Positions 31,035 through 62,772 of a stretch of 64,000 nucleotides of DNA are shown piece by piece. The translations under genes and the position numbers were made by a program. Position 1 is the first letter of the stretch; every line of letters begins with the position of its first letter. A model generated the notes under the pieces. That model searched no databases, was not told the DNA's origin, and was given only the letters and a program-made list of their open reading frames with translations. Source of the DNA: Candidatus Latescibacterota bacterium (lineage in GTDB: Bacteria > Latescibacterota > UBA2968 > GCA-2709665); NCBI GenBank assembly GCA_965226795.1, contig CBDDDZ010000005.1:2880001-2944000 (forward strand), read 5' to 3'.

Positions 31035-31392
31035 CGTTTCAGCGGGATGGCGGAAGGCGAACCTCCGTCCGGGAAACGCGCCCGGACCTTGGCAGGTGGA
31101 GGCCATAATCTCACACAAACACACGAAGACACCATGAGATCGGAAAACGGTTCAGGTGATTATACACCGTCTGACGCGATACATCCAACTGCCTGGCAAT
31201 CCGCGGCTCCTACCTGCGTAGCGCCTGCGCTGCAGGCGGGTCGGAACGCCGTCTTCACTCCCCTAGAATGCTCCTCTTCACCTTGTTTCATGGCTCTCGC
31301 GCTCTCACTCTAATCTGGATCTCAATTCCAAAAGCCGCGTACCCAGTGCCTGAGGCGATTCAACTCTTCGGTCCTCAGGAGTTTCATTGCCA

Positions 31393-31424
31393 AATGTCAG
31401 TGTATATGATATATTTCTGACATT
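31393..31424. promoter_or_regulatory. Probable AbiEi operator inverted repeat
   Basis: AATGTCAG-N16-CTGACATT immediately upstream of the antitoxin ATG. Confidence 0.55.
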
Positions 31425-31437
31425 CAAGAGGTGGATC

Positions 31438-32034: not shown

Positions 32035-33043
32035 CACACCGTTTCAATCCCTCTCCCCGGACGACCGGCGGGATGCCCTGAACGTGGCCGCCAGCCTCAG
32101 TGGGAGGAGTACCCATCTCCTGGAGAAGGACATATGGGTAGTGCATACGTTACGCGCCCTGATGGAGAGTCCTTACGGTAGAGACCTGACCTTCAAGGGA
32201 GGCACCTCTCTGGCCAAGGCGTATCATGCCATCCGTCGATTCTCGGAAGACCTTGACATCACCTATGGCATCCGAGCCATCGCTGCCGACCTCGTGGAAG
32301 GCTATGGGGAAGATGCACTGCCATCCACGCGCAGTCAGGAACGGAAGTGGACGCGGGAAATTAGACGGCGCTTGGCCGAGTGGGTGGAAAATCATGCGCG
32401 GCCCAACATTGAGTCTAACCTGTTTGAGTCCGGCCTTTCCGCACGGATACGTGCCGACGGAGACCGGATATTCGTCAGTTATGAGCCCCTGTTCCCAGAT
32501 TACGGATTCGTAAGCCCGGAGGTGTCGGTGGAGTTTGGGGGGCGTTCCACCGGGGAGCCTCGCGAAGAACGTCCTATAACGTGCGATGCGGCGCCATATG
32601 TATCGGAAGTCGCATTCCCCTCGACCCATACTCTTGTCATGTTGCCTGAGCGTACCTTCTGGGAGAAGGCCACAGCCGTACACGTTTTTTGCCGCCAACA
32701 ACGAAGCCGAGGTGAGCGGCTCTCCCGGCACTGGCATGACCTCTTCCACCTGGACGACGCGGGTTTCGTCGAAAGGTCGCTCGTCGACCGAGCCCTGGCA
32801 ATGTCGGTAGCACGACACAAGGCGATGTTCTTCCGCGAGAAGGACGCCGCAGGGAGTTGGATCGACTACGAGGCTGCGGTATCTGGTGCATTGCAGTTGG
32901 TGCCGCATGGACTGGCATATGAGGCGCTGGCTGACGACTACGGAAAGATGCTCAGCGATGGGATGTTGCTTGAAGACGAAGAGCGATTCGAGGCCATAGT
33001 GGACAGATGCGCCGAAATCGAGACGAGGGCGAATCGAAGGTAA
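32027..33043 (+). CDS. abiEii: Type IV TA toxin AbiEii nucleotidyltransferase
   Basis: LEKD, FKGGTSL, RFSEDLD, ERTFWEK, RHWHD. Confidence 0.92.
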   Translation: MADTPFQSLSPDDRRDALNVAASLSGRSTHLLEKDIWVVHTLRALMESPYGRDLTFKGGTSLAKAYHAIRRFSEDLDITYGIRAIAADLVEGYGEDALPSTRSQERKWTREIRRRLAEWVENHARPNIESNLFESGLSARIRADGDRIFVSYEPLFPDYGFVSPEVSVEFGGRSTGEPREERPITCDAAPYVSEVAFPSTHTLVMLPERTFWEKATAVHVFCRQQRSRGERLSRHWHDLFHLDDAGFVERSLVDRALAMSVARHKAMFFREKDAAGSWIDYEAAVSGALQLVPHGLAYEALADDYGKMLSDGMLLEDEERFEAIVDRCAEIETRANRR

Positions 33044-34187: not shown

Positions 34188-35651
34188 GTGTTATGTCCCT
34201 AAAATAACCTGGTTAATTCTTGAAGTTGTCCTATGTTCTCTCTAAACATTTTTGCACCTTTCAATAAAGGAGAGAGCCATGGGACGTGGTCGCCCTCGAA
34301 AGCCGATTGTGTTGAGTGCTGAGGTCCGTGAGGAACTGACGTCACTTTCACGGTCTCGTACGTTGTCGCATGGTCTCGTGCGACGCGCCAATATCATCTT
34401 GATGAGCGTCGAAGGTCTCAGTAACCGTGTGATTGCCGAAAAAGTCGGGCTGAGCCAGCAGAGTGTCGTCACCTGGCGTAACCGCTTTCTAGTGTTATGT
34501 CCCACCTGGTTAATTCTTGAAGTTGTCCTATGTTCTCTCTAAACATTTTTGCACCTTTCAATAAAGGAGAGAGCCATGGGACGTGGTCGCCCTCGAAAGC
34601 CGATTGTGTTGAGTGCTGAGGTCCGAACTGACGTCACTTTCACGGTCTCGTACGTTGTCGCATGGTCTCGTGCGACGCGCCAATATCATCTTGATGAGCG
34701 TCGAAGGTCTCAGTAACCGTGTGATTGCCGAAAAAGTCGGGCTGAGCCAGCGAGTGTCGTCACCTGGCGTAACCGCTTTCTCCAGCAGATTAATGGGTCT
34801 GTACGATGAACGCCGTTCGGGCAGACCACGCACCGTCGAGGCCGAGGAGATCACAGCGCTGGAAGACGCTCACCACAAAACCCGAAGATGGCAGCACCCA
34901 ATGGACGTGTCGATCCATCGCTGTCGAAACGAAGATATCCAAATCCGAGGTGCAACGTATCTGGTCCACATTGGGGATTGCGCCACACCGGCAGAAGCAC
35001 TTCAAGCTATCCAACGATCCCTTCTTCACTGAAAAAGTGCACGACATCGTCGGACTGTATCTGGACCCACCCGATTGTGCGATGGTGCTTTGTGTCGACG
35101 AGAAAAGCCAGACGCAGGCGTTGGAACGTACCCAACCGCTTTTGCCGATGGGGCTGGGATACGTGGAGGGCGTGACGCACGATTACGTCCGCCACGGTAC
35201 CACGACGTTGTTCGCCGCCCTGGACATTGCCTCAGGCGAGGTTTTGACGCAATGCAAGCGCAGGCACCGCCACCAGGAGTTTTTACAGTTTCTCAACCAC
35301 ATCGACCAAAACATACCTGAAGATCTCGATGTACACTTAATCGTCGACAACTATTGTACGCACAAACACACCAAGGTGAAACGATGGCTTTCAAAAAGAC
35401 CCAGATACCACCTTCACTTTACTCCCACATACGCATCCTGGCTCAACCAAGTCGAGATCTGGTTCAATATCATCACACAGAAAGCCATCAGGCGGGGCTC
35501 CTTCAGATCCGTGAGAGAACTCATCGACAGAATCCAAACCTTCACCGACAACTACAACAAGACGTCGAAGCCATTCGTCTGGACCGCCACCGCAGTATCC
35601 ATCCTCCAGAAAATCGAACGATTATGTAAATCTATTTCTGGGACATGACAC
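34188..35651 (+). mobile_element. IS630-family insertion sequence with a duplicated left end and a frameshifted transposase
   Basis: IRL GTGTTATGTCCC and IRR GGGACATGACAC; TA duplicated at 34186-87 and 35652-53; CVDEK, IVDN and NQVE DDE motifs. About 300 bp of the left end repeats from 34492. Confidence 0.92.
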
Positions 35652-36325: not shown

Positions 36326-39300
36326 TCATTTCATCAGCACCATCTTCCTTACCGCCGTGAACTCGCTGCCGTTCACCACCAGACGGCTGCAGTAGACGCC
36401 GCTGGACACTTCCCTCCCCGAGTCATCCCTCCCGTCCCAGGCGACCTGGTAATATCCGGCCTGCCGGTTTCCCTCGGCCAGCACACGGACCCGTTGACCC
36501 AGCAGATTGTAGACGATCAGCGAGATTTCACCGGCCTCGGGCAGCTGGTATGAGATCTGGCACTCGATGTTGAAGGGGTTGGGGAAATTCTGATGCAGGG
36601 CATATTCCCCTGGCTCGGCCGGTGCATCTCGCATGAAGCTACCACCGATCTTCCATCCCGTCACGTCGCCCCGGTCGGTCCCGACCACCACGCCGTCTCC
36701 CAGTCTCAGAATATGGGTCGGCTTCCCCGAGACCTTTCCCAGACCCCGGACCTCCCCGGATCCGTCCAATACGACGACGCTGCCGTCCTCGCAGCCGGTC
36801 ACGACCCAGGACGCGTCATATGCGCGCAGAAACGCCAGCACGGTGGGCGGGCTGGGAAGCCGGCGAGTCCACACACGGTTGCACCGCGCATCCAGCGCGA
36901 CCACGAGTCCCTTCGACGTCGCCGCAAGAATCTCCTTCTTCCCGTCTCCGTCCAGGTCGCCGATGTCCAGGTCGCGAATATTCTGTGCAGGGATCGGATT
37001 CCCCGGTCCAAAATTCGCGTTATAAAGAGGTGCGCCGTTCTCACGCCACACGCTCACCCTGTTCCACGTGCCGTTGATCTCGCTGACCACCTCTCTCGTC
37101 CCGTCTGCGTCCAGATCTTCGTAGAAGATGTGTTTCCGGCTCATCGAGGCCCATCCGCCAATATACGTGTGGCCTGCCGGAACCCCGGCAAACCTGCCAC
37201 GTATCACGTCGCTCGTTCGGCTGTTTACCAGCGAGAGCGCATGCGAATCCGTGGGCTGACGCGCGATCAGGAGATCGACGCCGCCCCTGGGACTCTCGAT
37301 CAGTGCGAACCGGGTTCCGGGCCCCCAGAATACCGGCAGCCGCTCCACGAGTTCACCCCTGCCGTTAAGGATCTCCAGCGTACAGGCGCTTCCCACGAAT
37401 GCCTGGCTCTGTCCGTTTCGAAAGATTCCCGTATGCAACCCGTGGATCCCCTCGTGACCCGGTGCGGTCTTGAACCAGTAGGTCTTCCCGGCCTGGTAGA
37501 CCGCCGGGGCCATTTCGGACACAAACGTCCACCGGCGTCTTCCCTCCAGGTCGAATGCAATAACCTGTTCGTCCCTGCATCCGACAAGCAGCAACTGGAA
37601 AGCATCCCACCAGCGAAGCACCCGAACCGGCCCGTCCGTACCGAAAAACCGACCCTCCCGGCCATCCGATGTCAGCAGATGTACCCCTCTGTCCTCAGCG
37701 ACTCCGATCCAGGTCTTGCCTTCGGCTTCGAAGGAGATCATGTCCGTCACCGCACCGCCGATCCGTGACCTCAGAAACATAGGCGTGGGTGGGCCGTCCG
37801 GCGCTGCCGGCGTAACATGAATCTCCGCATCCCGCCGGCGCGCCGTCAGGGCCTGCGACAACAGCCCCCTGAGGCGATCGACCGTTTCGGAGAGCACAAT
37901 CGGATCTGGTGTCGCGCCTGTCAATTCATGCCTGCCCTTCGGTACATGGAACACGGCGCCGCTATCGGAAACGGAGCTCAGCGGCAGCGGAACGCCATCC
38001 AGACGGACGTCCGACGGTTCAGCGAACGCCGCGCGGATGTGTGTCTCGTCTCTTGTTGTTAGCGCCGCGGATCCAGTGCGGAAGTCCCAGTCCAGATCAA
38101 CCGGCGCATCCGATGCGAAAAGAACCGCCTCCATCCCCGCGGATTTCAGATCTTTCCCGAAGAGGTGGTCGCTGGCCAGGAGAACGATGTCGCCCTGAAT
38201 ACCGGCGTACTCTCCGCCGACGACAATGGCCGGTTCGGGAAGTCCCAGTGCCGCCGCCTGCGGCCCGAGCCGCAGGCACGCAACCGGGGCTTCAGCCGTG
38301 CCGTTCCCGGCAATCAGCGAAAAGAACGCGCGCTCCTCACCGGACGAAACGGAGCCCGTCCACACCAGGAATGCCGTTCTTCTATTGAGTACAATCTCAA
38401 CCGGGTCGGAGGCGCGGATCCCGAAACGGGTACCGCCACTCTCGATGTACGACTCGCCACCCGATGAAATCGAACGCCATCGTCCCTGTCCCGTCCATTC
38501 GGTCCTCACTTCGAGATTCGCGCTGTCCACCCGGAATTTCAGTCGATCCACAAACAACGCATACCTGCCCACGCGTTGTACCAGGGCGCGACGCCAACTG
38601 CAGAATGCCGCATCGGACACCTCGGCGACGGCCACGGCCGTCCGGCCCAACACATCCCGATAGCGAAGCGCCGCGTCCATTGGGCTGTGCGGCTCCACCA
38701 GCCCGTCCGCCCCGGTCAGCACCTGATTTCCGTACCCCTCGAGTACAGTCTCCCCATCCAGGCGGAGTTCCAGAACCGCGTACGAGTGGTAGGGATTTCG
38801 GGACGCCCCGTTCAATCCGTCGATCAGGATAAAATCGCCCGTCGCGTCGGTTGTGCTTCGAAAGCTCCCGAATTGAAACGAGTCCGACAGCGGCAACCCG
38901 CTCCCGCGTCGTTTCCACAGGGTCTCCGGCAACTCGAGAATACTCCATTTGAGGGTAAGATCGGTCGGTTGCTCCGGAACAAGGTCCGGCTCCGGCCAGA
39001 ACGACTGGCCCAGCCGGAACCCGTCCAGGTCCAATCCGGTCCGGCGCGTGTATTCCAGATATCGCCCGTCTCCCATGAGATACGCGGCTTTGTGGAGATA
39101 TCCGATGGAAGCGTAACGAAGAGCCCAGTCCGGTTCGCGGCCGGATATCAGCATCTCCTGCCCGCGCAGCAGCGTCTCCAGAACGCCGTTCCGCAACGCC
39201 GCCCGATCTCCCGAAATCAGCATATACGTGAAAATCGGGGCAATGCCCGTACTGTACCAATACAGATTGTCGGCTTCGCCCATCACCCATGCGTGGTTAC

Positions 39301-40444
39301 GCAATGGAGAGAATTGCCATTCAGCCGCCCACATGCAGTGCTTCCAGAGCGGGTGCGGGTAATCCTTCTGAAAGTACCGTCCGAGGCAGTAGAGCGCGAT
39401 GGCCGCCCATTGGTGATGCCGGGTACCTACTGCGGAGGGCGGCGTGTCATATGCCTCTCTGCCCATATCCAGGTTTCGTACGATCAAGGCCGTCCGGCTC
39501 TGGCCATAGGGGTCATGCGAAAACTGCTGCGCAAATGCGTTGGTGATCCTCAATCGCTGTTCGTCCGTGAAGACCGGGCTTTCCTCGATCAGATCCCAGT
39601 ACAGGATCAACATATGCGCGGTGTAATGGTACGGGCCGCTGAGGGGCTGATCTTTATTCTCGATCCTTTCACCGTCGATCGACGCAATCCGGGCCTTCGC
39701 CTCCGCGTCGGGAAAGGCCAGCCGCAGAAACTCCCGCGCATGGTGTTCTTCACCGGTCATATAGTACATCGCCATATGCTTGCTGATGCTGTTCCAGCCG
39801 AAATACCCCACGGACCGGTAACCCGCGGAGGCCTCCCAGGTCTCGAAATCCTGAAGCTTCTCCGGTACCTGCATCCCGTTTCCAAGACGGATTTCCACCA
39901 GCCAGCCGACCGACAGGCCTGCTCCACCGCCGGGAACTCCGGCAAGCTTTCGAATAAGCACATCGGTCGCCAGACCCACGCCGGCGGCATCGCTCCCACC
40001 GACTGCAATCACATTGCGCCCGTTCCCGAAGGGATTGTGGAGAGACCGCACAACGTAGCCGTCAGGTCCGGGATATTTCAGGTCCAGCAGTGTGTAATAG
40101 CGATCGTACAGCCCCGCAATGGTGCGATTCGTGGACCTGTTGCCGAGCACAATCAGGTTTTCCGAAATTGGCACGGACCCGGCAGGTGAATCGTCCCGCG
40201 CCACCGGTACCTCCACCCCGGTCCGGGCGAGAATCGCCCGCTGGATTCGCACCGCGTCGGTGTCGTAGATTCCGCTTGAGGGAACCACGATAGTGGCGGC
40301 TGCCCGCCCGTTCTCCACCAGGACGGTGGTCAGGTGCAGATCTTTAAGGTCGAGGTATACGGGAGGGATTGGCGCGGAGTTTGCGTACAGGGGCGTTGCA
40401 GAGGGTGCGAAGAGAAGGAGAAGGGCAACCACGCGCGGGTACAT
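36326..40444 (-). CDS. Large secreted protein with a heparinase II/III / lyase-like core, an FG-GAP/PQQ-like propeller and a C-terminal FlgD-Ig (T9SS-like) sorting domain
   Basis: Signal peptide from MYPRVV; NLIVLGN...PGPDGYVVRS N-terminal domain; aromatic helical core; DLDADG and DLDGDG repeats; LHQNFPNPFN...WDGRDDSGREVSSGVY...KMVLMK. Confidence 0.7.
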   Translation of the reverse strand: MYPRVVALLLLFAPSATPLYANSAPIPPVYLDLKDLHLTTVLVENGRAAATIVVPSSGIYDTDAVRIQRAILARTGVEVPVARDDSPAGSVPISENLIVLGNRSTNRTIAGLYDRYYTLLDLKYPGPDGYVVRSLHNPFGNGRNVIAVGGSDAAGVGLATDVLIRKLAGVPGGGAGLSVGWLVEIRLGNGMQVPEKLQDFETWEASAGYRSVGYFGWNSISKHMAMYYMTGEEHHAREFLRLAFPDAEAKARIASIDGERIENKDQPLSGPYHYTAHMLILYWDLIEESPVFTDEQRLRITNAFAQQFSHDPYGQSRTALIVRNLDMGREAYDTPPSAVGTRHHQWAAIALYCLGRYFQKDYPHPLWKHCMWAAEWQFSPLRNHAWVMGEADNLYWYSTGIAPIFTYMLISGDRAALRNGVLETLLRGQEMLISGREPDWALRYASIGYLHKAAYLMGDGRYLEYTRRTGLDLDGFRLGQSFWPEPDLVPEQPTDLTLKWSILELPETLWKRRGSGLPLSDSFQFGSFRSTTDATGDFILIDGLNGASRNPYHSYAVLELRLDGETVLEGYGNQVLTGADGLVEPHSPMDAALRYRDVLGRTAVAVAEVSDAAFCSWRRALVQRVGRYALFVDRLKFRVDSANLEVRTEWTGQGRWRSISSGGESYIESGGTRFGIRASDPVEIVLNRRTAFLVWTGSVSSGEERAFFSLIAGNGTAEAPVACLRLGPQAAALGLPEPAIVVGGEYAGIQGDIVLLASDHLFGKDLKSAGMEAVLFASDAPVDLDWDFRTGSAALTTRDETHIRAAFAEPSDVRLDGVPLPLSSVSDSGAVFHVPKGRHELTGATPDPIVLSETVDRLRGLLSQALTARRRDAEIHVTPAAPDGPPTPMFLRSRIGGAVTDMISFEAEGKTWIGVAEDRGVHLLTSDGREGRFFGTDGPVRVLRWWDAFQLLLVGCRDEQVIAFDLEGRRRWTFVSEMAPAVYQAGKTYWFKTAPGHEGIHGLHTGIFRNGQSQAFVGSACTLEILNGRGELVERLPVFWGPGTRFALIESPRGGVDLLIARQPTDSHALSLVNSRTSDVIRGRFAGVPAGHTYIGGWASMSRKHIFYEDLDADGTREVVSEINGTWNRVSVWRENGAPLYNANFGPGNPIPAQNIRDLDIGDLDGDGKKEILAATSKGLVVALDARCNRVWTRRLPSPPTVLAFLRAYDASWVVTGCEDGSVVVLDGSGEVRGLGKVSGKPTHILRLGDGVVVGTDRGDVTGWKIGGSFMRDAPAEPGEYALHQNFPNPFNIECQISYQLPEAGEISLIVYNLLGQRVRVLAEGNRQAGYYQVAWDGRDDSGREVSSGVYCSRLVVNGSEFTAVRKMVLMK

Positions 40445-40689
40445 TTCCACGATCCTTTCTCGTGCCCTGAAGCGCCGTGCGGCGCGCGAGGCCGTCGATG
40501 AGCCGCGAAAACGCAAATATATGGGAATATACCCTGTTTGAGGTCGAATGTGTAGTCGTACCTTTCCATCCGTCGCGTCGACCGGGCGCGCGGGCGCCTT
40601 CGCACGGTCAATGCATGGACCCCCGACGCCTTGCATGACCGGATTCATTCGGCTATCTTTTGGTCAGAGAAGCCTGGAAAGGAGGGAAC

Positions 40690-52697: not shown

Positions 52698-54104
52698 TCA
52701 GAACCTCTCTTTGGCAAGTCCGTACTTCCGGTAAAAATGACGAAACTGATCGTAGCTCAGACTCAGCGATTCGGCCGCCTTGCGCTGGTTCCAGTCTGCG
52801 CGGTTCAGCGCGCTCCTGAGCAGCCCGAGTTCAAAGGCCGTGACCTGAGCGTCGAAACCGTCTCCCGGCGGCGCCGGAGCCCCGCTGGAGATTTCGGGCG
52901 GCAGATCGCAGGGTTCGATGGATGCGCCCGTGGCCATGCAGGCGGCACGTTCGGCGGCGAATTTGAGCTCGCGCACGTTTCCGGGCCACGGGTACCCCAA
53001 CAGGAGGCGGAGGGCGCGTTCCGAAAACGGACGGACCACGAGTCCGGGCACCTCCCGGACGATCTGTTCAACAAAATACAGGGCAAGTGGCTGGATGTCT
53101 TCATTCCGTTCGCGGAGTGGAGGAATGCGAATGATTTCAAAGCGGAGGCGGTCGTAGAGATCCTGACGAAAACGGCCTTCCATGATCTCTCGTTCAAGAT
53201 CGGCATTCGTGGCGGCAATGATCCGGACGTCCACCGTGGTGGGCGTGGCCCCGCCCACGCGTTGAATTTCCTGGTACTCGATGGCGCGCAGGATGTTCTG
53301 CTGGAATTCCGGGGTGGTGTTGCCAATTTCGTCCAATAACAGGGTACCGCCGTTGGCCGCTTCAAACCGGCCGGGGCGGGCTTCCGTGGCTCCGGTAAAG
53401 GCGCCCTTTTCGTGGCCGAAGAGTTCGCTTTCGAGCAAATTGGCGGAGAGGGCGGCGCAGTTGACTTTAACGAAGGGACGATCTCTGCGTACCCCGCCGT
53501 AATGAATCGCGGCGGCCACGAGTTCCTTCCCGGTACCGGGTTCGCCGAGGACCAGTACCGGTCGCGGGATGGAGGCGATGCGCCCGGCCTGCTGCATAAT
53601 CCGCAGCATCTGCGGGCTGGCGTTGACCGTCCTGTATTTTTTCCCGAATTCGTCCCGGTAGTAGCGATTCTCCCGGTCCAGATTCTTTACCTGGGCTTGC
53701 AGCCGGGCATTCTCCCTCAGGACGGCGAGTACGCGGTCGAGTTTTTCCAGGCTGAGTTCAAGCCGGTCCTCAATATAGAAATCTTTTTCGATGAAGTCGG
53801 AGGCGCCCATCCGCAGGGCCGCTACGGCGTTCTCCACGGTGCCCTTGCCCGTGAGGATGATAACCGGCAGATCGGGTACGAGGTGGCGAATTTGCCGGAG
53901 GACTTCCAGACCGTCCGGCTCGGCCGGACCGAAGTCGATATCCAGAATGGCCATGTCAACGACCGAAACGTGCTCTCGCAGGTATGCAAAGGCCTTTCTT
54001 CCCGTCGGGAAAGCCCTCACGATCCGGCCATCCACCTGGAGGCTTCGCGTGAGCATGCCCAGTATTTCGGGCTGGTCATCGGCGATAACGATTTGAGCAT
54101 TCAT
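52698..54104 (-). CDS. Sigma54 enhancer-binding protein of the PspF clade with an N-terminal receiver domain
   Basis: REC residues (ADD, LDID, TG, K); [14 protein letters not shown]; PspF-type IEY, DRL.F and NQRKAAE.L.LSY.QFR...KY signatures. Confidence 0.9.
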
Positions 54105-54107
54105 GGG

Positions 54108-55736
54108 TTACTCAAGGAATTCTTCGGCCAGGGGCAGCCGCGCGGCCGATATCGGATCGCCGCTCCAGCCGATACTTTCCGTACCGGAGACGAGTTCGAA
54201 GTCCACCGGAAGATCGATGCGGAACACGGCGCCTGCGCCCGGGCGGCTGATCATGCGCAGGCTTCCTCTGTGGGCGGACACAATGCGGGAACAGATGCTG
54301 AGGCCGAAGCCATTGCCCTTTTCCTTGGTGGAAAACCCTGGATCGAAGATTCTGGACTGGATCTCTTCGGAAATGCCGGGTCCATTGTCTTCCACTTCAA
54401 TGAAAACCGACGCCCGCTTATTGTCGTAGCCGGCCTGTACTGTGACCGCTCCGTCTTCATCTACGGCGTCCAGTGCGTTGAGAATCAGGTTGGTGACGGC
54501 TTCTCGCAGCATGCCGGGATCGACCTTGACCTGGGGAACCTGGGGCTCAGATACGTAGCGGAGCGCCGCGCCGCCGGTTCGGGTCGAGACGGCTTCTTTG
54601 ATTTTCCCCACCAGTTGCGGAATATCCACCAAAGAGGGATTCAACGGATCCTGTTTCATGCTGCGCAGGTAGGCCACCCATTGGTCGTAGATGTGTTCCT
54701 GGTCGCGGGCGAGATTTCTCAGGTCGGCGAGAACAGTGTCTTCCGGCGGCGCCCTTCGAATGAGCCGGCGCGTACGGCTCCCTACCAGACCCATCAGGTT
54801 CTTGATCTGGTGACCCCGCGTATACAGGCTCTCTCCCACCTGCACGCGACCCAGGTCGATGAGCTCGAGGGATAAACGCGACAGGACCGAGGCTGCTTTG
54901 CCGCCGAATTCTTCAATGATGGATGTGTACTCCTGTTCCATCTGAGCCGAACTTCTGTGATCGAAAAGAAGGTTCGCCAGGTTTCTGTAGGGTAGCGCAT
55001 AGTCCGGCTCGAGCTGGATCGCTATCTTGAATGCGCCCAGAGCCTGGAGGGTCTGACCCGTCTGCATGAGCAGAACGCCAAGGTTGTTGTGGCCCGGGGC
55101 GAACAGCGGATTCGCTTCCAGCCCGCGACGGTAGACCATGATGGCTTCATCGATGTTTTCCGGAAGGTCGTCCAGAAAGCTGGCGAGCAGGAAGCAGGCG
55201 CCGTCCACATTGGCGAAGGGCACGCCCCGGTCCACGGCCCCGAGAATATAGCGAAGCGCTTCAACCGCCTGTTGCCGGCCATTCGACCCCGATTCCGCAC
55301 CTTCGGCCTGCAAAATCGCCAATTGAAACTGCGCCTCCAGATGGTCCGGATCACGTTCGGTGGCGGCTTTAAAGGCCTTGAGAGCTCCTCCGGCGCCCCC
55401 TTTGAGCCGGCAGAGTCCCATCTTGTAAAACAGGTCCGCACCGTGATCCGGCGCAAGATCGAGGCAGCGCGTAAAGCAGGTCAGTGCGTTCCGCCAGTTG
55501 CCTTGCCTGCAGTACACAACACCCAGATTGTGGCGTGCTCGAATATTCTGAGTATCGGTGGACAATGCCGCCCGGTAGGCGGCTTCGGCCATTTCCAGCC
55601 TGCCTGTTTCCAGCGCAGCGTCCCCTTCCCGACAGTGTCGGCGCGCAGTGGGGTTTCCGGATTCAGGCAGGGCGTACGCGATAGCGATGCGCTCGGCGGG
55701 AGCAGGCGCGTTGTCGGTCACGGTTGGATTATGCAA
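54108..55736 (-). CDS. Soluble TPR-containing histidine kinase
   Basis: Several TPRs; H-box GHQIKNL; NLILNALDA, DNGPG, FDPGFSTK, GNGFGL. No TM helix is visible. Confidence 0.9.
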   Translation of the reverse strand: MHNPTVTDNAPAPAERIAIAYALPESGNPTARRHCREGDAALETGRLEMAEAAYRAALSTDTQNIRARHNLGVVYCRQGNWRNALTCFTRCLDLAPDHGADLFYKMGLCRLKGGAGGALKAFKAATERDPDHLEAQFQLAILQAEGAESGSNGRQQAVEALRYILGAVDRGVPFANVDGACFLLASFLDDLPENIDEAIMVYRRGLEANPLFAPGHNNLGVLLMQTGQTLQALGAFKIAIQLEPDYALPYRNLANLLFDHRSSAQMEQEYTSIIEEFGGKAASVLSRLSLELIDLGRVQVGESLYTRGHQIKNLMGLVGSRTRRLIRRAPPEDTVLADLRNLARDQEHIYDQWVAYLRSMKQDPLNPSLVDIPQLVGKIKEAVSTRTGGAALRYVSEPQVPQVKVDPGMLREAVTNLILNALDAVDEDGAVTVQAGYDNKRASVFIEVEDNGPGISEEIQSRIFDPGFSTKEKGNGFGLSICSRIVSAHRGSLRMISRPGAGAVFRIDLPVDFELVSGTESIGWSGDPISAARLPLAEEFLE

Positions 55737-55761
55737 TCGGAGACTCCTGGTTGAAGCCGAT

Positions 55762-57276
55762 CTATTCCGAAGATGTCTTCGGTCTTTCCGAAGGGTCGCC
55801 TGTCGGATTGTTCTCGCCTGTCATTCTACCCAGGAATTCCGGTAGTTCGAGGCCCGCCAGTTTTGCCAATTCATGCATCGGCGGAATGGCGCCCATCAGG
55901 CGCTGGCCGAGATTGGACATACCTCCCTGTCCGTTGCCGCCGTCCCAGACCACGATTTTATCAAGGGGCAGATTCTTTATGGCTTCGGCCTGGATGCCTG
56001 CGACCTCGGTCAGCCGTTCCACGATGAGGAAGGCTGCGGCGGCCTGGTCGTTTCCTCCGCATGCCGCCATCAACTCCTTGTAGCCCTCCGCCTTGGCCTC
56101 CAGGATGGCCTGAGTGCCCTCGGCTTCGGCTCGCTTCTGTGCCAAAATGGCAGCAGCCTTCCCCTGCGCCACAAGTGTCCTCTGCTCCTTCTCGGCCTGT
56201 GCCTGTACCACCAGCTTTTGCTTTTGCGCATCGGCCTGTACGACGATTTCCGCTCTCAGTCGAGCTTCTTCGCGCAGCGCGCGGGCATCCTCGGCATCTT
56301 TTTCCGCACGTTCCTGGGCAACCCGTATAGCGCCGTCCGCAGCCTTCGCGGCCTCCTGCCCCTTCTGCCGGGCGATCTCTTCGGCCACTTTCTGCTGCGC
56401 CATATAGCCGGCCTTTTTGGATTCGGCCTCGGCCTCCGCATGGACCGCTTCCGCATCCAGAGAAGAGACCATCTGGCGTCTGTTTCTTGCGGCCTCGGTC
56501 TCGCCGATTTCGGCTTCGGATTCGAGAGCGGCAACCCTTTGGCGCCGGTCCCTGGCGGCTTCGGCCTCGCCGATTTCGGCGGCCGCGTTCGCAGCAGCCA
56601 CGTCCGTGCGCTGGTCCCGTTCCCGTTCCGCCACCCCCACCTTGCCCATTTTCTCCTGCTCGGCCACGTCGACGGTCGCCTGGTTGATAGCTTCGGCCGC
56701 GGCCTTTTGCCCGAGAGCCTTGATATAACCGCTTTCGTCTTCAATATCCTTGATGTTCACGTTAATCACGGCCAGGCCGATTTTCTCCATTTCGGTGGAG
56801 ACTGCTTCATTGACCTTGAACATAAAAGCCTGCCGGTCCCGGTTGATTTCTTCGATTTCCATAGTGGCTATCACCGCCCGCATCTGACCGAGGATGATGT
56901 CCTGCGCCTGACTCTGGATCTGTTCGCGAGAAAGACCCAGGAGACGAACTGCCGCATTTTGCATCACGCCCGCCTGATTTGACACCGCCGCGGTGACGGT
57001 TGTCGGAACGGACACACGGATGTTCTCCTGCGAAAGGGCGTTGTCCAGGTCTATGGGAACGACAAACGGCTCCAGGTCCAGATACTCATAGTCCTGCAGG
57101 AGCGGAAGAACGAAGGCAGCGCCCCCGTGAATGCATTTCGCCGCCCCCTGTCCGGTCTTGCCGTAGACGACCAGTATTTTGTTGGATGGACACCGCCTGT
57201 ACCTGGAAATAAACGTCACGAAGAGCAGAAATACCACTAACAGCATTATAATTGTCAGTATCGTCTCAGTTGCCAT
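55762..57276 (-). CDS. Flotillin family (SPFH) protein
   Basis: N-terminal TM helix, YRRCPSNKILVVYG, GGAAFVLP, an AEA-rich coiled coil, DKIVVWD. Confidence 0.93.
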   Translation of the reverse strand: MATETILTIIMLLVVFLLFVTFISRYRRCPSNKILVVYGKTGQGAAKCIHGGAAFVLPLLQDYEYLDLEPFVVPIDLDNALSQENIRVSVPTTVTAAVSNQAGVMQNAAVRLLGLSREQIQSQAQDIILGQMRAVIATMEIEEINRDRQAFMFKVNEAVSTEMEKIGLAVINVNIKDIEDESGYIKALGQKAAAEAINQATVDVAEQEKMGKVGVAERERDQRTDVAAANAAAEIGEAEAARDRRQRVAALESEAEIGETEAARNRRQMVSSLDAEAVHAEAEAESKKAGYMAQQKVAEEIARQKGQEAAKAADGAIRVAQERAEKDAEDARALREEARLRAEIVVQADAQKQKLVVQAQAEKEQRTLVAQGKAAAILAQKRAEAEGTQAILEAKAEGYKELMAACGGNDQAAAAFLIVERLTEVAGIQAEAIKNLPLDKIVVWDGGNGQGGMSNLGQRLMGAIPPMHELAKLAGLELPEFLGRMTGENNPTGDPSERPKTSSE

Positions 57277-57430
57277 TGCTAATCCCTCCTCCATTGGATA
57301 TTTTCAACTTTGATTGAGATCTATCCCGGAGCGAATCCGGTGCGGGTTGAAACCCCTACCTGTCTCATCCATCGGCGCAATCAGACAGTTGGGAAATCCA
57401 GGAAACATAGACATTTAAAACAAAATCCAC

Positions 57431-58039
57431 TCAGGACACCAACGGCTCGACCTCAAGCGTGGTTGGATCGAGCACACGTAGAATGCGGACCGGCGTATTG
57501 GCCGAGATGGGCATGCCATTTTTTCCGCGGGCAGATACGTAGGCGACGGTTCCGCTCTCCATCACCCGGACCTGTCCGGTGCCGCCTTCCAGGATATCCA
57601 GATATACCTCGCCCGACGTACCAACGCATGTATCCAGGCTGGCGTTTCCAGTCTCTGTAAGCTGCCGGATTCCGTGGAAAAAATAGGCCACAACCGCCAT
57701 GCCTGCACTGCCCCAGACAAGCGCGTAAAGTAGGGCGGTCTGAATATCCAACCCTCTCTCGAGATACAGGGCGCCCGCCCACCCGAACAGCATGCCAAAG
57801 GCGATCAGGCACCTGACAGATAGCAGTTTGAAAGAAGCAACCGTACCGTTTTCCAGTCCGTCGTTAAATTCCGGGCCGGCGTCGCCGAGGTTTGTGTCTC
57901 CAGAAACGCCTGCATCCGAACTGTCTCCAAGACCAAGTACAACCACCAGGAGTTGCCAGACGAAAAACGCACTGAAAAAAATCGCCACGATGTAGAAAAT
58001 CTGGTTGAGCGTGGTCAGATCCGTCCACCAGGCATCCAT
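57431..58039 (-). CDS. NfeD-like membrane protein (OB-fold C-terminus), partner of the flotillin
   Basis: Three TM segments, FKLLSVR..IAF...FGWAG, VGTSGEVYLDI...GQVRV. Confidence 0.88.
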   Translation of the reverse strand: MDAWWTDLTTLNQIFYIVAIFFSAFFVWQLLVVVLGLGDSSDAGVSGDTNLGDAGPEFNDGLENGTVASFKLLSVRCLIAFGMLFGWAGALYLERGLDIQTALLYALVWGSAGMAVVAYFFHGIRQLTETGNASLDTCVGTSGEVYLDILEGGTGQVRVMESGTVAYVSARGKNGMPISANTPVRILRVLDPTTLEVEPLVS

Positions 58040-58311
58040 ATTTCGTTCCCTTCGCCGGGTCGCTGGGTCTCTGACATCGAATACGTAAAAATGTGCAGGA
58101 TTTCAGAGGTTCTGGGGCCAGTAACGCACCCCTCAAGAATGTGACATAGAACGCCAACGGAGTCAACAATAAACCCAGTGGGTTTCCGGCGGCGTTTGCA
58201 GCTGCCGAATCCTCTGTTCCCGTCAAACCCCTCTGGCACGGGGAGGCGGCATCAATTACGACGATTTCCCGGCCCTGAAATCTGCTTGTCCGCGACCTGC
58301 GGCAAGCTGTC

Positions 58312-58887
58312 TCAGAAAGGGACCAACCCGTGCTTCCTGAATTCGCCCTTCAATTGATATCTTCCACGGTTGAGCCAGGTCTTGACCGTACCCATCGGAA
58401 GTTGCAACTCCCGTGTAATCTCCTCGTATGACCAGTCCCTGACATAACGCATCCAGACGACTTTGCGATACCTGGCCGGCAATGCGCGAATACTCTTCCT
58501 GACAAGCTCGCGGTGCTGGCTTCGCTGGGCCGAAATTTCCGGATTTTCGCCGGTAGCGGGCACGCGCGTGGCTTCTACAAGCGCCGCGGGGTCTTCGGTT
58601 ACTTTTATCCACCGCCGGCGCACCTGTTGTTTGCGGTAGTGGGATTTATGTACGTTCAGCGCGATTTGCGTAAGCCAGGTGGCAAACGCGGCCTCTCCCC
58701 GATAGGAGCCCAGGGCGGTATATGCCCTCAAAAAGGCGGTTTGCACCAGATCCTGTGCGGTTTCAGGATCGCTGGTTCTACGCATCATCGTGGCGTAGAT
58801 CTGTTCATGGCAGGCCTTGTAGAGAACACCGAAGGCAGCGGCGTCACCTTCGATTGCCCTCCGGACCAGATGCCGTTCGTTTTCCAT
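58312..58887 (-). CDS. ECF RNA polymerase sigma factor
   Basis: GDAAAFGVL, AQDLVQTAF, FATWLTQIA.N, SYEEI..L.LPMGTVKT.L.RGR. Confidence 0.94.
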   Translation of the reverse strand: MENERHLVRRAIEGDAAAFGVLYKACHEQIYATMMRRTSDPETAQDLVQTAFLRAYTALGSYRGEAAFATWLTQIALNVHKSHYRKQQVRRRWIKVTEDPAALVEATRVPATGENPEISAQRSQHRELVRKSIRALPARYRKVVWMRYVRDWSYEEITRELQLPMGTVKTWLNRGRYQLKGEFRKHGLVPF

Positions 58888-58918
58888 TAATAGGATATCC
58901 TCTCGAAAGGATGGTCAT

Positions 58919-59095
58919 TTACCTGGAGTCACTCGAAAGCAGTCGATAACCCACGTAAATCAGGACGAACGAAACCAGCAGTTTCAGGAGCAAAAACAGG
59001 ACTTCCAGGGACACGCCGATCAGCTTGATCGCTTCGAAAATACCGAAGTATGCGCCGATGGCGATAAGGATGATGCCGAGGATTTTCGCGAGCAT
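58919..59095 (-). CDS. 58-aa two-TM small membrane protein (LiaI/PspG-like); missing from the ORF track
   Basis: AAAGGA RBS, then MLAKILGIILIAIGAYFGIFEAIKLIGVSLEVLFLLLKLLVSFVLIYVGYRLLSSDSR*. Confidence 0.75.
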   Translation of the reverse strand: MLAKILGIILIAIGAYFGIFEAIKLIGVSLEVLFLLLKLLVSFVLIYVGYRLLSSDSR

Positions 59096-59253
59096 TGCTC
59101 TGTCCTTTCTCTCTTGCGGTGTTGTATTGAATGAAGGTCCCGGACCAGGTTCGAACGCGAGTCACGGAGGGCTTCGAGATCGTTCAGGCGCTGGTCCACG
59201 GTGTCCAGCCGCGTGTCGAGAATCAAGCGAAGGATTTCCCACGCAGTGAAGTC

Positions 59254-59628
59254 TCAAGCCACCTTTTTAACATTTCCGTGGTCTGCGTCCGGCGTAAGGG
59301 TTCCCACGTCTGCTGTTTTGAAAATACCGGACAGTCTCGTCGTTCTCAGAATCCTCTCGAGCCGCCCGGAAACGCCGCTCAGCTTCAGGTCGCCTCCCGC
59401 GTCTCTAATGGACGTCAGACCCCTGATCAACTCCCCCAGCATGGCGGCGCCGACACGGTTCGCCTTTGAAAGGTCCACCACCACCATGCCAGCGCCTCGC
59501 TTGACAAGTCTGGCAATTCTGCGCCGAAACGGCGCACCTTCCGACTCGGCGATGAGGTCGCCACCTACGGTGACAATGACCACACCATCCCGAGTGCTTT
59601 CGCTGAGGTGAAGACGATTTGCGTACAT
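59254..59628 (-). CDS. STAS-domain anti-sigma-antagonist-like protein
   Basis: VVIVTVGGDL, VVVDLS, GGDLKLSGVS..LERIL..TRL. The usual D-S-S/A-G phosphosite reads GAAM here. Confidence 0.85.
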   Translation of the reverse strand: MYANRLHLSESTRDGVVIVTVGGDLIAESEGAPFRRRIARLVKRGAGMVVVDLSKANRVGAAMLGELIRGLTSIRDAGGDLKLSGVSGRLERILRTTRLSGIFKTADVGTLTPDADHGNVKKVA

Positions 59629-59721
59629 GGTTCAATGCCCCGCGTTACTGTGTAGGTTTGATCTAGGTGCCGTTGCCCGAACCTGTTTCTCTTGGAGCCA
59701 AAGTGACCGCGCCGTCGCCGA

Positions 59722-59937
59722 TCATGAGGTCCCTCGCGAGCCCGGCCGATTCAGCTTTTCGTCGATCGCGATCATGATTTCCTGGATATCCGTCAGTCGC
59801 CGGTCGAGGTCGTCCAGCCGGGCATTCAGGCGCCCTTCGACCTTGCCGGGCAGGACGCCTTTGGTTTGTCGATCTACATATTTAAGGACCGCCGTCGCGA
59901 GAACAATTAGCGCAATGCCAACACCGAATTCAAACAT
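59722..59937 (-). CDS. Small single-TM coiled-coil protein, PspB-like
   Basis: GGAGG RBS; N-terminal TM helix followed by RLDDLDRRLTDIQEIM. Confidence 0.65.
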   Translation of the reverse strand: MFEFGVGIALIVLATAVLKYVDRQTKGVLPGKVEGRLNARLDDLDRRLTDIQEIMIAIDEKLNRPGSRGTS

Positions 59938-59963
59938 GACATCCCTCCATCAAATTCAAGATA

Positions 59964-60605
59964 TCAAAGGTCATCCACCGGTTTTGCCCGGTATTTCTCG
60001 GCCCCGCGTTCAATTTCAGGAAAGTGATAGACAACCAGACCGGACTCGGAAACGCGAACTTCGGTGCTGCCGCCGACGGCCAACGCGCCGAGGATCTCGG
60101 CGGCTCTTTCGACGGTCATCCTGCCGTCGGTAGCGGCCTCCAGAACGGTGAGGCTTCCGCCTTTCTCCCGTGCGAGTCTGAGCAACCGATGTTGGTATTG
60201 CGCGTACCGTTTGCGCTCGGCCGCCGTGTGGACCCTGCACCCGGCCAGCCAGAAGACCAGCGCGATGGCGACAACGACAAGCCCCATGCTGAAATCAAGC
60301 GCGTCGAGGCGGAAGCCGGACGGCTGGAAACCGGAGAAAACGGGCCCCATCAGGCCGCCGAGTCCAAACAGAATCGCTGTGGATTTTAGAACGAACGCGA
60401 GGGCGTATCGCATGGCGCAGCTCCCGTCAGTGGCCAGATCGGAGAATCGGAAAGACAGGCGACGCGATCGTGGGTGCCGAACCGTTCGCGGCTCTTGCCG
60501 CATGGGTCGGGTTTTCCGGACGTCGCGCCAGGCCTTTTTTGTGTCGCGCATCGCCTTTTCAATTTCGTAAGCGATTTCGTCCAGGATTTTTCGCAATTCA
60601 TGCAT
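59964..60605 (-). CDS. Two-TM membrane protein with a C-terminal winged-helix-like domain
   Basis: Overlaps the pspA stop by 8 nt; LLRLAREKGGSLTVLEAA...AAEILGAL...VRVSESGLVVYHFP. Confidence 0.75.
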   Translation of the reverse strand: MHELRKILDEIAYEIEKAMRDTKKAWRDVRKTRPMRQEPRTVRHPRSRRLSFRFSDLATDGSCAMRYALAFVLKSTAILFGLGGLMGPVFSGFQPSGFRLDALDFSMGLVVVAIALVFWLAGCRVHTAAERKRYAQYQHRLLRLAREKGGSLTVLEAATDGRMTVERAAEILGALAVGGSTEVRVSESGLVVYHFPEIERGAEKYRAKPVDDL

Positions 60606-61275
60606 CGGATTTGCGGAGTTTGTCTTTCAAAGCCTCAAGTTCCTCTTCCACGGTGTTCCGGCGTTCCAGTTTTTCGAACGAGCCTTCGAGCGAGGCATCC
60701 TCGCCTGCGATTTCGGCGTGAGCGGAAGCCTCGGCTTCTTCGTTTTCAACCCGGCTGCGAAAGCGTTCGAAGCTGGAAAATGCGTCGTCGCCGATGCCCG
60801 AAAGGCCCTGGGCGATCTGCTTTCGGGCCTGGGCGGCTCGGTGCCGCGCGATAAGGGCCACCTGGCGGGTGCGTGCTTCGTCCAGTTTGGACTTTAGCTG
60901 CGTCAGCTGTTTCTTGAGTTGGTCGGAGGTCTTGTGGCTTTCGTCGAAAGCGACTTCCAGGTCGCGGGCGGCCTTTTCGAGGGTGGCCTTTCGTTCCAGC
61001 GCGCGCCGGGCGAGGTCGTCCTCGCCGTTTTCCACGGCCAGTTCGGCCTTTTTCTGCCAGGCTTCGATCTGGTCCGTTTTTTCCAGAAATTGACGCTCCA
61101 GGCGTTTTTCGTTCGCAACGGCGGTCCCGACGGAAGCAGTCGCCTTGTTGACGGCGTCTTCCATTTCGAGAATCATCTGCCGAATCATCTTTTCCGGATC
61201 TTCGGCGCGATTCAGAATGTCGTTGATGTTGGCCTTGATAATGTCCGCCATTCTGGAGAAAATCCCCTTAGCCAT
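60598..61275 (-). CDS. pspA: PspA/IM30 (Vipp1) family protein
   Basis: GIFSRMADIIKANIN..L.RAEDPEKM, AELAV..GEDDLARRAL, VEEELEALK. Confidence 0.96.
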   Translation of the reverse strand: MAKGIFSRMADIIKANINDILNRAEDPEKMIRQMILEMEDAVNKATASVGTAVANEKRLERQFLEKTDQIEAWQKKAELAVENGEDDLARRALERKATLEKAARDLEVAFDESHKTSDQLKKQLTQLKSKLDEARTRQVALIARHRAAQARKQIAQGLSGIGDDAFSSFERFRSRVENEEAEASAHAEIAGEDASLEGSFEKLERRNTVEEELEALKDKLRKSDA

Positions 61276-61368
61276 GGTCGTACTCCCTTCTAAGGTGGGC
61301 ATCTGGACCCCACCATGGTGGAATGATACAGTTTCCAGTTTCTATCCACGGTTCGGCCGATTACACGC

Positions 61369-61384
61369 TGCAAAGAACGTACCC
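61369..61384 (-). promoter_or_regulatory. Sigma54 -24/-12 promoter upstream of pspA
   Basis: The minus strand reads GGGTACGTTCTTTGCA (GG-N10-GC), close to the consensus TGGCACG-N4-TTGCW. Confidence 0.75.
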
Positions 61385-61468
61385 GTATGACAAAAAAACC
61401 AGGCTGCTATTAAGTGCCAGTATTTATTAGATTTATCCCGTCCATCGAGACGGAGCTGCCAAAAGCTG

Positions 61469-61506
61469 TTGGTGAAAAACGCCATACATTAGGCGAAAAC
61501 AGCCGG
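61469..61506. promoter_or_regulatory. Tandem PspF-type upstream activating sequences
   Basis: TGGTGAAAAACGCCA and AGGCGAAAACAGCC, 21 bp apart and about 90-120 bp upstream of the -24 box. Confidence 0.55.
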
Positions 61507-61547: not shown

Positions 61548-61576
61548 TTGCCTTTTTCGGACAAATGGCGTAATAT
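61548..61576 (+). promoter_or_regulatory. Sigma70-type promoter for the amidase
   Basis: TTGCCT-N17-TAATAT. Confidence 0.45.
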
Positions 61577-61650
61577 CAGAGGTGCTCTCTCAGGAGGGCA
61601 TAACGGGTGCGGACACCGATCTATGGGAGCTTCCGAGTAGAACGAAAATT

Positions 61651-62772
61651 ATGGAATACTATCGACATTTGCGCCTGCTGTGCGCTGTACTCTGCCTGGT
61701 CATGTTGCTCGCAAGCCCCCTTTCCGGACTCTCGATGGTTTACAAGGTTCGGAAGGGCGACTCTCTGTATTCCATTGCCCGGCAGTTCGATACAAGCGTC
61801 CGGGAGATCAAGCGAATCAACAAGCTACGCACAAATAACCTCTATCCGGGGCAGGTGCTGCGGCTGGGTCCACGGATTGTCAAATATGACGCGCAGAACG
61901 GTCCGTACTACTGGCGAAAGCCAAAGGCGTCCAGGCAAAAGCACCGGAACTATTCGGAGGCCGCGCGTTCCGCCCCGAGTCTGGACTATCGGCGCGCTCA
62001 GATCCTGTTGCGCGCCTTTGACAACGAGATTCTCTCCCGGGCCCCCGGGAAGAGACGGCAGCCGCTCAAAGGCTGGCGGATTGTGCTCGACCCGGGGCAC
62101 GGGGGGATCGATCCGGGAGCGATCGTTTCCAATACCACGGGCGAGAACAGGCGGGTTTACGTCGTCGAAGATGAATATGTATACGATATTGCACTGCGAA
62201 TGTACAGGAAACTTCGACTTCTGGGCGCGGAGGTGGCATTGACGGTGATCAGTCCCAATCATCTGATTCGGGATAACGAGGTGGCCAAGGTTACATTCGT
62301 CCACGAAAAGAACGAAGTCTATAACGATGAACGGTACAACCGGAGAAATTCGGATCGGGTGCGACCCAGGAGCGCCAATCTTTCGCAGCGCGTTCGAGTT
62401 GCGAACCGCTTCTTCAAAAGAGCGCGCAGGGGCAGGAGCCTGTTTGTCTCACTGCACGCGGACAACAACCCAGGACGGTCCGAGGGACCGCTGGCGATCC
62501 ATCTGAAACGGCGGGGCAAGGTAGACAGCCGTTCCAGAACGTTCGCACGCATCATGCGTTCAGCCCTGAACCAGCCCGATTTGCCCGCGAAGGTTCAGGG
62601 ACGGAACCTCTGGGTCTTGCGAAACAACCTGGCCCACGCCGAGATTCTGGTTGAGATTCACAACGTCCACGACAAAAACGACGCCTATCGGATTCGGCAT
62701 CATAAGGACAGGGAGCGGAACGCGCAGCGGCTCGTTAACGGAATCCTTACGTATGCGAAGAAGCGCCGATGA
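61651..62772 (+). CDS. LysM plus N-acetylmuramoyl-L-alanine amidase (Amidase_3)
   Basis: Signal peptide, YKVRKGDSLYSIA (LysM), LDPGHGG, VEDE, SLHAD, ILVE. Confidence 0.92.
   Translation: MEYYRHLRLLCAVLCLVMLLASPLSGLSMVYKVRKGDSLYSIARQFDTSVREIKRINKLRTNNLYPGQVLRLGPRIVKYDAQNGPYYWRKPKASRQKHRNYSEAARSAPSLDYRRAQILLRAFDNEILSRAPGKRRQPLKGWRIVLDPGHGGIDPGAIVSNTTGENRRVYVVEDEYVYDIALRMYRKLRLLGAEVALTVISPNHLIRDNEVAKVTFVHEKNEVYNDERYNRRNSDRVRPRSANLSQRVRVANRFFKRARRGRSLFVSLHADNNPGRSEGPLAIHLKRRGKVDSRSRTFARIMRSALNQPDLPAKVQGRNLWVLRNNLAHAEILVEIHNVHDKNDAYRIRHHKDRERNAQRLVNGILTYAKKRR

Follow-up and report, generated by a model that had tools for sequence, protein, structure and literature searches.

A 64,000-nucleotide stretch of the genome of a Candidatus Latescibacterota bacterium (contig CBDDDZ010000005.1; the whole stretch is referred to here as the window) carries a Psp membrane-stress cluster in which pspA is very probably driven by REC-PspF, a PspF-type sigma-54 activator with a receiver (REC) domain that is encoded in the same cluster beside a soluble histidine kinase with tetratricopeptide repeats (TPRs). 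It is a conserved Psp variant that extends across a class and recurs elsewhere, and it is new in that no description of its wiring was found in the literature searched. The evidence, as read from sequence, lies in the gene set and order, the conservation of enhancer and promoter, the PspF ancestry of the activator, its loss of Trp56, its intact receiver and the soluble nature of the kinase.

In the mechanism that we propose, REC-PspF likely binds conserved enhancer palindromes and activates the sigma-54 promoter of pspA once the neighbouring TPR kinase, which would be its cognate partner, has phosphorylated it. Free PspA is predicted to bind the TPR domain of the kinase and to hold the kinase off, and membrane stress would draw PspA away and release the kinase. 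The inhibitory sense of this binding is suggested by analogy with the action of PspA on PspF. The small membrane proteins of the cluster may replace PspB and PspC and capture PspA under stress. Taken in full, with the feedback of PspA on the kinase included, we consider the chances of this mechanism to be evenly balanced.

The pspA promoter and its PspF-type enhancer

The following elements were identified upstream of pspA.

61491 to 61505, minus strand: distal enhancer site (upstream activating sequence, UAS), a weaker copy with a GG-N9-CC repeat, 21 bp from the proximal site
61470 to 61484, minus strand: proximal PspF-type enhancer palindrome TGGCG-N5-CACCA, a 10/10 match to the pattern
61385 to 61469, minus strand: AT-rich spacer between enhancer and promoter (A+T 0.58, against 0.42 for the genome)
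61369 to 61384, minus strand: sigma-54 promoter (-24/-12), GG-N10-GC, with a predicted start at about 61358

Relatives were represented by 32 of the 98 other loci, hand-picked across genera; pspA is present in 29 of these, the contig ends within the locus in two others, and the last (L043; handles of this form denote loci) is an orphan. The enhancer pattern was defined from the window and E. coli before the relatives were inspected, and the E. coli pspA and pspG enhancers conform to it as well; a similar enhancer pair, 20 bp apart as compared to 21 bp in the window, is found at E. coli pspA. It was found that the palindrome matched at 9 or more of 10 positions in 30/30 loci, perfectly in 16, whereas shuffled sequences reached these levels in 3.4% and 0.1% of cases, respectively. 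The distal GG-N9-CC repeat is kept in the 12 upstream regions that were aligned, and the distances between enhancer and promoter, 89 to 150 bp, are clustered with a period near 11.5 bp, about one helical turn. A role of IHF at the psp enhancer-promoter spacer is known from E. coli, and by analogy the AT-rich spacer may serve as an IHF-type bend.

A sigma-54 promoter before pspA had been proposed in an earlier reading made from the sequence of the window alone. This placement was upheld by conservation, as the site is kept in 30/30 pspA upstream regions, and not by the window on its own, in which the sigma-54 consensus is not above chance (12 matches versus 9.1 expected). An N9-spaced TGGCAC site at about 61418 was discarded in favour of the N10 site.

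Promoter matrices were trained on the 29 relatives and applied to 773 sigma-54-like sites in the genome, which has rpoN and three pspA genes. The window pspA promoter ranked first of the 773 (35.4 bits), and the promoter of a second pspA ranked second (30.9 bits). This second gene (G000:C2:564893-563907, minus strand) has its own sigma-54 site and a perfect enhancer and is followed by a paralogue of a 58-amino-acid (aa) protein of the window cluster. It is likely a second member of the regulon, and its independent site is the strongest sign that REC-PspF has a Psp regulon. The third pspA (G000:C3:231673-229897, minus strand), which has upstream a 130-aa gene with, by eye, the look of a CesT/Tir-type partner, is not among the top promoter matches.

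In five runs from two studies, contigs from RNA libraries stop at 61342-61390, on either side of the predicted start. No loose ends are listed at this place, and what is probably a DNA run spans the gap; one RNA contig covers 49026-61390. The gaps in runs X1, X2, X3 and X9 are uninformative. These contig ends give no more than a weak hint of a transcription start. Neither the strand nor the level of transcription can be read from contigs, nor whether the genes share one transcript.

The activator, the kinase and a predicted contact with PspA

The three proteins of the proposed switch are encoded as follows.

60598 to 61275, minus strand: pspA (PspA/IM30, ESCRT-III-like), 225 aa, PF04012 at E 1e-48, start ATG 61275
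54108 to 55736, minus strand: soluble TPR-DHp-CA histidine kinase with His309, Gln310 at H+1, Asn313 and N-box Glu412
52698 to 54104, minus strand: REC-PspF, with a receiver (Asp55, Thr85, Lys107), a PspF-clade AAA domain (GAFTGA type) and a PspF-type helix-turn-helix (HTH) of the Fis kind

The best NCBIfam family of the activator is PspF (TIGR02974, 342 bits, under the cut-off of 443), and within the genome E. coli PspF matches REC-PspF best (266 bits versus 229); the two proteins have a DRL.F motif and the HTH pattern in common. A 115-row tree was made from the best 150 matches of a profile over 1.84 billion proteins plus the activators of the same genome, as a quick search with multi-AAA and some variant rows left out. 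In this tree the AAA-HTH part and E. coli PspF fall together in a clade of 36 rows, with an approximate likelihood ratio (SH-aLRT) support of 100, and the same PspF grouping was obtained with 60 rows. Top matches of 900-1000 aa that had been taken for kinase-activator fusions were actually tandem AAA proteins. As judged from sequence features, the PspF-clade AAA-HTH and the enhancer together bear out the earlier proposal of a sigma-54/PspF output.

The PF00072 receiver occupies residues 5-112, and its Asp55, Thr85 and Lys107 are intact in all homologues but a truncated one. In the text portions of PMC3791423, Tyr51, Leu52 and Trp56 are described as the PspA docking patch on PspF, with Tyr51 the main contact. 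Trp56 is present in 0/33 homologues of REC-PspF and Leu52 also in 0/33 (Gly, Ser or Ala being found instead), whereas the standalone PspFs in the trees that have a parsed loop all carry Trp. Tyr51, on the other hand, is kept in 29/33, and a second PspA site on PspF is described in portions of PMC6003685. Because of these two points, direct inhibition of the activator by PspA has to be considered, in the form of a dual control in which phosphorylation is required and PspA, acting as it does in E. coli, also inhibits the activator via Tyr51 or the second site. Given the loss of both other patch residues in 33/33 homologues, we consider dual control to be rather unlikely.

There is no transmembrane (TM) stretch in the kinase, in agreement with the cytoplasmic input that had been suggested. 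In the structural model the TPR helices run into the DHp helix, and the CA domain is like those of ZraS, CckA and HK853; a scan of the genome contigs gave 15 close kinases, the remainder being generic. His309 and the N, G1, F and G2 boxes are invariant in the kinase homologues, of which 44/44, from four phyla, have the H-box H-[QR]-[ILV]-K-N. The acidic residue at H+1 is therefore replaced by Gln or Arg in all 44, and at H+4 the phosphatase Asn never varies. In the N-box, position 412 carries Glu or Asp in 44/44, with Asn416 also kept in 44/44. In contrast, 11 ordinary kinases have an acidic H+1, and 10 of the 11 have Gln or Arg at the matching N-box position. This control retained 14 of 79 rows, those with the His aligned, and dropped 65; three of its rows are Gln/Glu, one being the window kinase. 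The pattern looks like a reciprocal swap that retains catalysis, in which Glu412 may substitute for the absent H+1 acid.

The H-box motif of the HWE/HisKA_2 kinases is HRxxN. The window kinase resembles this group in being soluble, with a non-acidic H+1 and an N-box glutamate (PMC12148442). The difference is that there Glu replaces the first N-box Asn, whereas the window kinase keeps both Asn416 and Asn420 and has its acid one turn earlier, at 412; no HisKA_2/HWE Pfam match was found in it.

The active site also bears on a reading in which the TPR protein is mainly a phosphatase, like LiaFS or DrBphP. Its PspA-bound form would then hold the activator in the unphosphorylated state, the phosphate being supplied by acetyl phosphate or a different kinase. 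According to portions of PMC3510030 and PMC8292422, the H+1 acid is required for HisKA kinase activity, and DrBphP, which is without it, is a phosphatase only (PMC8292422, in part). The missing acid and the invariant H+4 Asn fit such a protein, but the invariant His309 and catalytic boxes and the fixed N-box acid do not, and we hold this reading to be improbable.

The predicted contact was obtained by folding kinase residues 95-365 with PspA residues 22-150. The complex score was 0.67 (runs of 0.67, 0.68 and 0.49), and the best of three controls reached 0.01; the score mark applied is reached by 116/157 solved complexes and 2/215 mismatched pairs, a calibration that is only roughly valid for the alignments used. 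The runs share at least 96% of contacts, with a predicted local confidence (pLDDT) of at least 84 in the partners. In the prediction, PspA helices 1-2 sit on TPR residues 203-280, immediately ahead of the helix leading into His309, with an interface of kinase residues 203-244 and 272-280 and PspA residues 41-62 and 105-123. In both partners, conservation is higher at the interface than elsewhere (0.79 versus 0.65 and 0.93 versus 0.79; nominal p of 0.005 and 0.003, for related genomes that are not independent). Of 23 interface residues, distant PspAs that are linked to a kinase keep 18-21, whereas the second PspA of the genome keeps 11 and E. coli PspA 5. The model supports binding of PspA to the TPR domain without demonstrating it, and it carries no sign of regulation.

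The kinase might read another signal, such as the cytoplasmic tail of a small membrane protein or an unfolded protein, with PspA only an effector like LiaH of Bacillus and with the same activator and promoter. A family of coiled-coil tails in the cluster, present in one to four copies with varied membrane heads, would suit sensors that share one docking partner, and in Poribacteria and most Planctomycetota the kinase-activator pair is without an adjacent pspA. However, the complex model and the interface conservation favour PspA, and three of the 29 loci are without the tail family and still have pspA and the kinase. We therefore regard a different signal as unlikely, if the least so of the alternatives to PspA feedback on the kinase.

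Gene content and conservation in Latescibacterota

All ten open reading frames (ORFs) of the cluster were confirmed to be co-directional, on the minus strand between 61275 and 52698. Pfam and NCBIfam matches were obtained for PspA, STAS, the ECF sigma factor, Band-7/FloT, the TPR and HATPase domains and REC-AAA-HTH; the three small membrane genes match no known family. In addition to the genes given above, the cluster contains the following.

59964 to 60605, minus strand: protein with two TM segments (2TM) and a C-terminal winged helix; core; 8-bp overlap with pspA; no known family
59722 to 59937, minus strand: protein with one TM segment and a coiled-coil tail (RLTDIQ...IDEK family), 71 aa, PspB-shaped
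59254 to 59628, minus strand: STAS protein (PF01740), accessory, with Ala at the phospho-acceptor Ser position
58919 to 59095, minus strand: 58-aa 2TM protein, core, with the paralogue downstream of the second pspA
58312 to 58887, minus strand: ECF sigma factor (Pfam/NCBIfam), limited to the taxonomic order of the window
58138 to 58166, minus strand: internal sigma-70-like promoter TTGACT-N17-CACATT, between the ECF gene and nfeD
57431 to 58039, minus strand: NfeD/YqiJ-like protein with three TM segments (3TM), accessory, by ESM Atlas likeness
55762 to 57276, minus strand: flotillin (Band-7, FloT-like; Pfam/NCBIfam), accessory, start reset to ATG 57276

Within the phylum, 99/168 genomes have a clear orthologue of the activator, and all of these belong to three families in a single class (20/21 in f1, 28/31 in f2, 50/76 in f4 and 0/39 in the others). 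PspC has the reverse pattern: it is present in 2/128 genomes of the three carrier families and in 26/36 of families f5-f14, and no match was found in the genome of the window, which is 96% complete, so that the lack of pspC noted from the sequence stands. These opposed patterns amount to about one evolutionary event, not many.

The kinase and activator genes, 3 bp apart in the window, follow pspA in 29/29 pspA-holding loci, and the gene order is thus conserved in relatives, as had been anticipated. The 2TM-winged-helix gene is present in 28/29 loci, the coiled-coil-tail family in 26/29 and the 58-aa gene in 23/29 by profile, with one more by eye; the ECF gene is found in 16/29, NfeD-flotillin in 11/29 and STAS in 2/29. 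Because of these counts, the core is taken to be six genes (pspA, the 2TM-winged-helix gene, the small membrane genes, the TPR kinase and REC-PspF), and the ECF, NfeD-flotillin and STAS genes are later, optional additions. The ECF/STAS layer and the flotillin scaffold that the sequence-only reading had built into the architecture are therefore not fixed parts of it.

The linkage in 29/29 loci, the PspF-type enhancer and the PspF ancestry also speak against the two-component pair being an unrelated neighbour, with pspA under the control of a different activator or of the ECF sigma factor, as do the pspA-to-activator clusters of family f4 that are without ECF. Such a reading could draw on the presence of about a dozen other sigma-54 activators in the genome and on the internal promoter that separates the pair from pspA in the family of the window, but it is very improbable.

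This internal sigma-70-like pattern, which was defined after the sequences had been inspected (chance 0.046 per 230 nt), occurs directly after the ECF stop codon in 8/9 loci of the family and in 2/9 of the sister family, and it occurs in loci without nfeD-flotillin too. The region before nfeD showed no recognisable ECF-type promoter, the sigma-70-like site being found there instead. Because of this conserved site it is improbable that all ten genes form a simple unit under the sigma-54 promoter, contrary to the single operon that had been pictured, and the internal promoter may maintain a basal level of kinase and activator.

Among the small proteins, the 71-aa product had been called PspB-like, but this is a likeness of shape only (one TM segment and a coiled coil): the comparison to E. 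coli PspB by hhalign gave 7.9%, and 0/19 members of the coiled-coil-tail family matched the PspB family. The small cluster genes gave 5.0% against PspC and 0.8% against PspG, and the 58-aa protein has no likeness to PspG; with single-sequence templates, these are weak tests, as is that for PspB. The winged helix of the 2TM gene is backed weakly, by a model pLDDT of 78 and generic MarR/TFE-type matches at E 0.007-0.04; the gene falls in unnamed ESM Atlas clusters. Its fold search gave generic winged-helix matches, and no likeness to ESCRT-II was seen among the matches listed. The NfeD gene has no Pfam match at E 0.05 and resembles ESM Atlas clusters of the NfeD_TM/YqiJ type, at a score of 0.95-0.97 and with the family assigned to 11-14% of the cluster members. 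The position of Ala in the STAS protein, also Ala in L023, is presumably that of the phospho-acceptor Ser, and a STAS paralogue elsewhere in the genome keeps Ser.

The coiled-coil tail is fused to different membrane heads at L016:10585-10941, L023:7548-8598 and L040:10967-11873. Insertions in the cluster are a 401-aa exported-looking protein in L020 and a transposase-like gene in L037, and behind the activator of L030 there is another pspA, together with a gene of the tail family (L030:16454-17161). The flotillin start is most likely ATG 57276, behind a Shine-Dalgarno sequence. In the spacer before it, one base at 57280 is absent in all covering RNA runs (six or seven) and a probable DNA run (runs X1, X2, X3, X5, X6, X7 and X13 are without it), and this extra base may be an assembly error.

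A LysM-amidase gene (61615-62772) diverges from pspA behind a conserved sigma-70-like promoter (61548-61576, plus strand), and the amidase, often with a P-type ATPase, flanks the cluster across the order. Elsewhere in the window, a DUF6088/AbiEii type IV toxin-antitoxin-like pair and a DDE transposase lie at 31387-33040 and 34806-35645. ORFs of 815 and 1440 aa (16573-19017 and 36329-40648) have no Pfam match at E 1e-15 and may be real orphans or antisense frames.

Other phyla, known systems and significance

The profile of the receiver-bearing clade was found in 5/251 Myxococcota, 26/301 Planctomycetota and 22/101 Poribacteria genomes, and the neighbourhoods of 34 of these 53 loci outside Latescibacterota were examined. 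The kinase is adjacent to the activator in 4/5 Myxococcota, 5/19 Planctomycetota and 4/10 Poribacteria loci, and a kinase match is present elsewhere in the genome for 4/5 genomes without an adjacent kinase. Three Myxococcota loci have the order kinase, activator, pspA, ECF. A branch of the receiver-PspFs (L211, L217, L222-L224, L226, L237-L240) has a decayed receiver and no adjoining kinase; L222 is opposite a Band-7 gene and L223 is beside a Ser/Thr kinase. A metagenome scan returned at least 598 stretches, dominated by generic AAA motifs.

Several observations weigh against the proposed mechanism, along with the conserved Tyr51, the second PspA site on PspF and the missing H+1 acid. The related genomes are non-independent samples, and L043 has a truncated activator and no cluster. 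TPR grooves bind helices readily. Outside Latescibacterota, pspA is beside the activator in 4/5 Myxococcota, 1/19 Planctomycetota and 0/10 Poribacteria loci; the PspAs of those genomes keep 3-9 of the 23 interface residues, and in five of these genomes none of 12 pspA genes showed a promoter and enhancer together upstream.

In quick searches, the receiver forms were paraphyletic to standalone PspF at a support of 60 in one model and monophyletic at 76 in another. Neither tree fixes the direction of change that the word "rewired" implies, the receiver forms being either sister or ancestral to standalone PspF. A broader scheme is possible but doubtful, namely a second basic Psp design, perhaps the older one, in which PspA, a bacterial ESCRT-III, would itself be bound as ligand by soluble TPR kinases that form a new family and have a swapped active site (the H+1 acid moved to the N-box). 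These kinases would drive a receiver-PspF in at least four phyla. The textbook PspF would then have arisen from the receiver form by losing kinase and receiver and gaining Trp56, shifting the feedback from kinase to activator.

The enterobacterial Psp system (pspF divergent from pspABCDE, and pspG; E. coli K-12) is similar in its PspA effector, PspF-clade AAA-HTH activator, sigma-54 promoter, tandem TRGYG-N5-CRCYA enhancers and AT-rich spacer, and in its small regulon, which likewise includes another target at a separate place in the genome. The window differs in that its activator gene is codirectional and downstream, whereas E. coli pspF is divergent from pspA, and in adding the soluble TPR kinase, on which PspA is predicted to act. 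The window system works like the enterobacterial switch and is not a member of it, because the receiver is present and Trp56 and PspC are absent. With LiaIH-LiaFSR of Bacillus it shares a PspA-family gene under a dedicated two-component system of the same cluster. LiaS, however, is membrane-bound with HAMP, and LiaR is a REC-winged-HTH protein (PMC11237479, in part), whereas the window kinase is soluble with TPRs and its regulator is a sigma-54 AAA protein. The catalogued context of pspA with Band-7/flotillin and YqiJ/YuaF (portions of PMC11237479 and PMC9239133) is matched by the 3TM NfeD/YqiJ-like gene and flotillin; in the window this pair is an optional insert with its own promoter, and the cluster has no CesT/Tir gene.

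The text portions of Ravi 2024 (PMC11237479) list PspFs that carry ACT/PAS domains, and contexts in which membrane kinases and REC-HTH regulators accompany PspA, but no receiver-PspF or TPR kinase, which its web app could list. The same architecture is absent from portions of Popp 2022 (PMC9239133), whose data files may list it, and of Huvet 2011 (PMC3041696). Portions of the Desulfovibrio regulome (PMC4641369) do not describe it either, PspF there being without an N-terminal domain. Literature searches, including one for PspA with a TPR kinase and an enhancer binding protein, returned no description of this wiring. The surmise that the architecture was not yet catalogued therefore agrees with the text of these sources, and the sequence-only reading had missed the PspF-type enhancer, the Trp56 loss, the contact predicted between PspA and the kinase, and the unusual active site of the latter.

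What is known of Psp regulation comes mainly from enterobacteria, in which PspA holds PspF, and from Bacillus, in which a membrane kinase is used and PspA is an effector only. The window system joins both schemes and retains the E. coli enhancer code across phyla. Its core switch proteins are all soluble, and it offers a testable three-protein circuit that would read the monomer-to-polymer state of an ESCRT-III-like protein, a kinase for which a protein ligand is predicted and whose catalytic residues are unusually arranged, and an approach to the origin of PspF.

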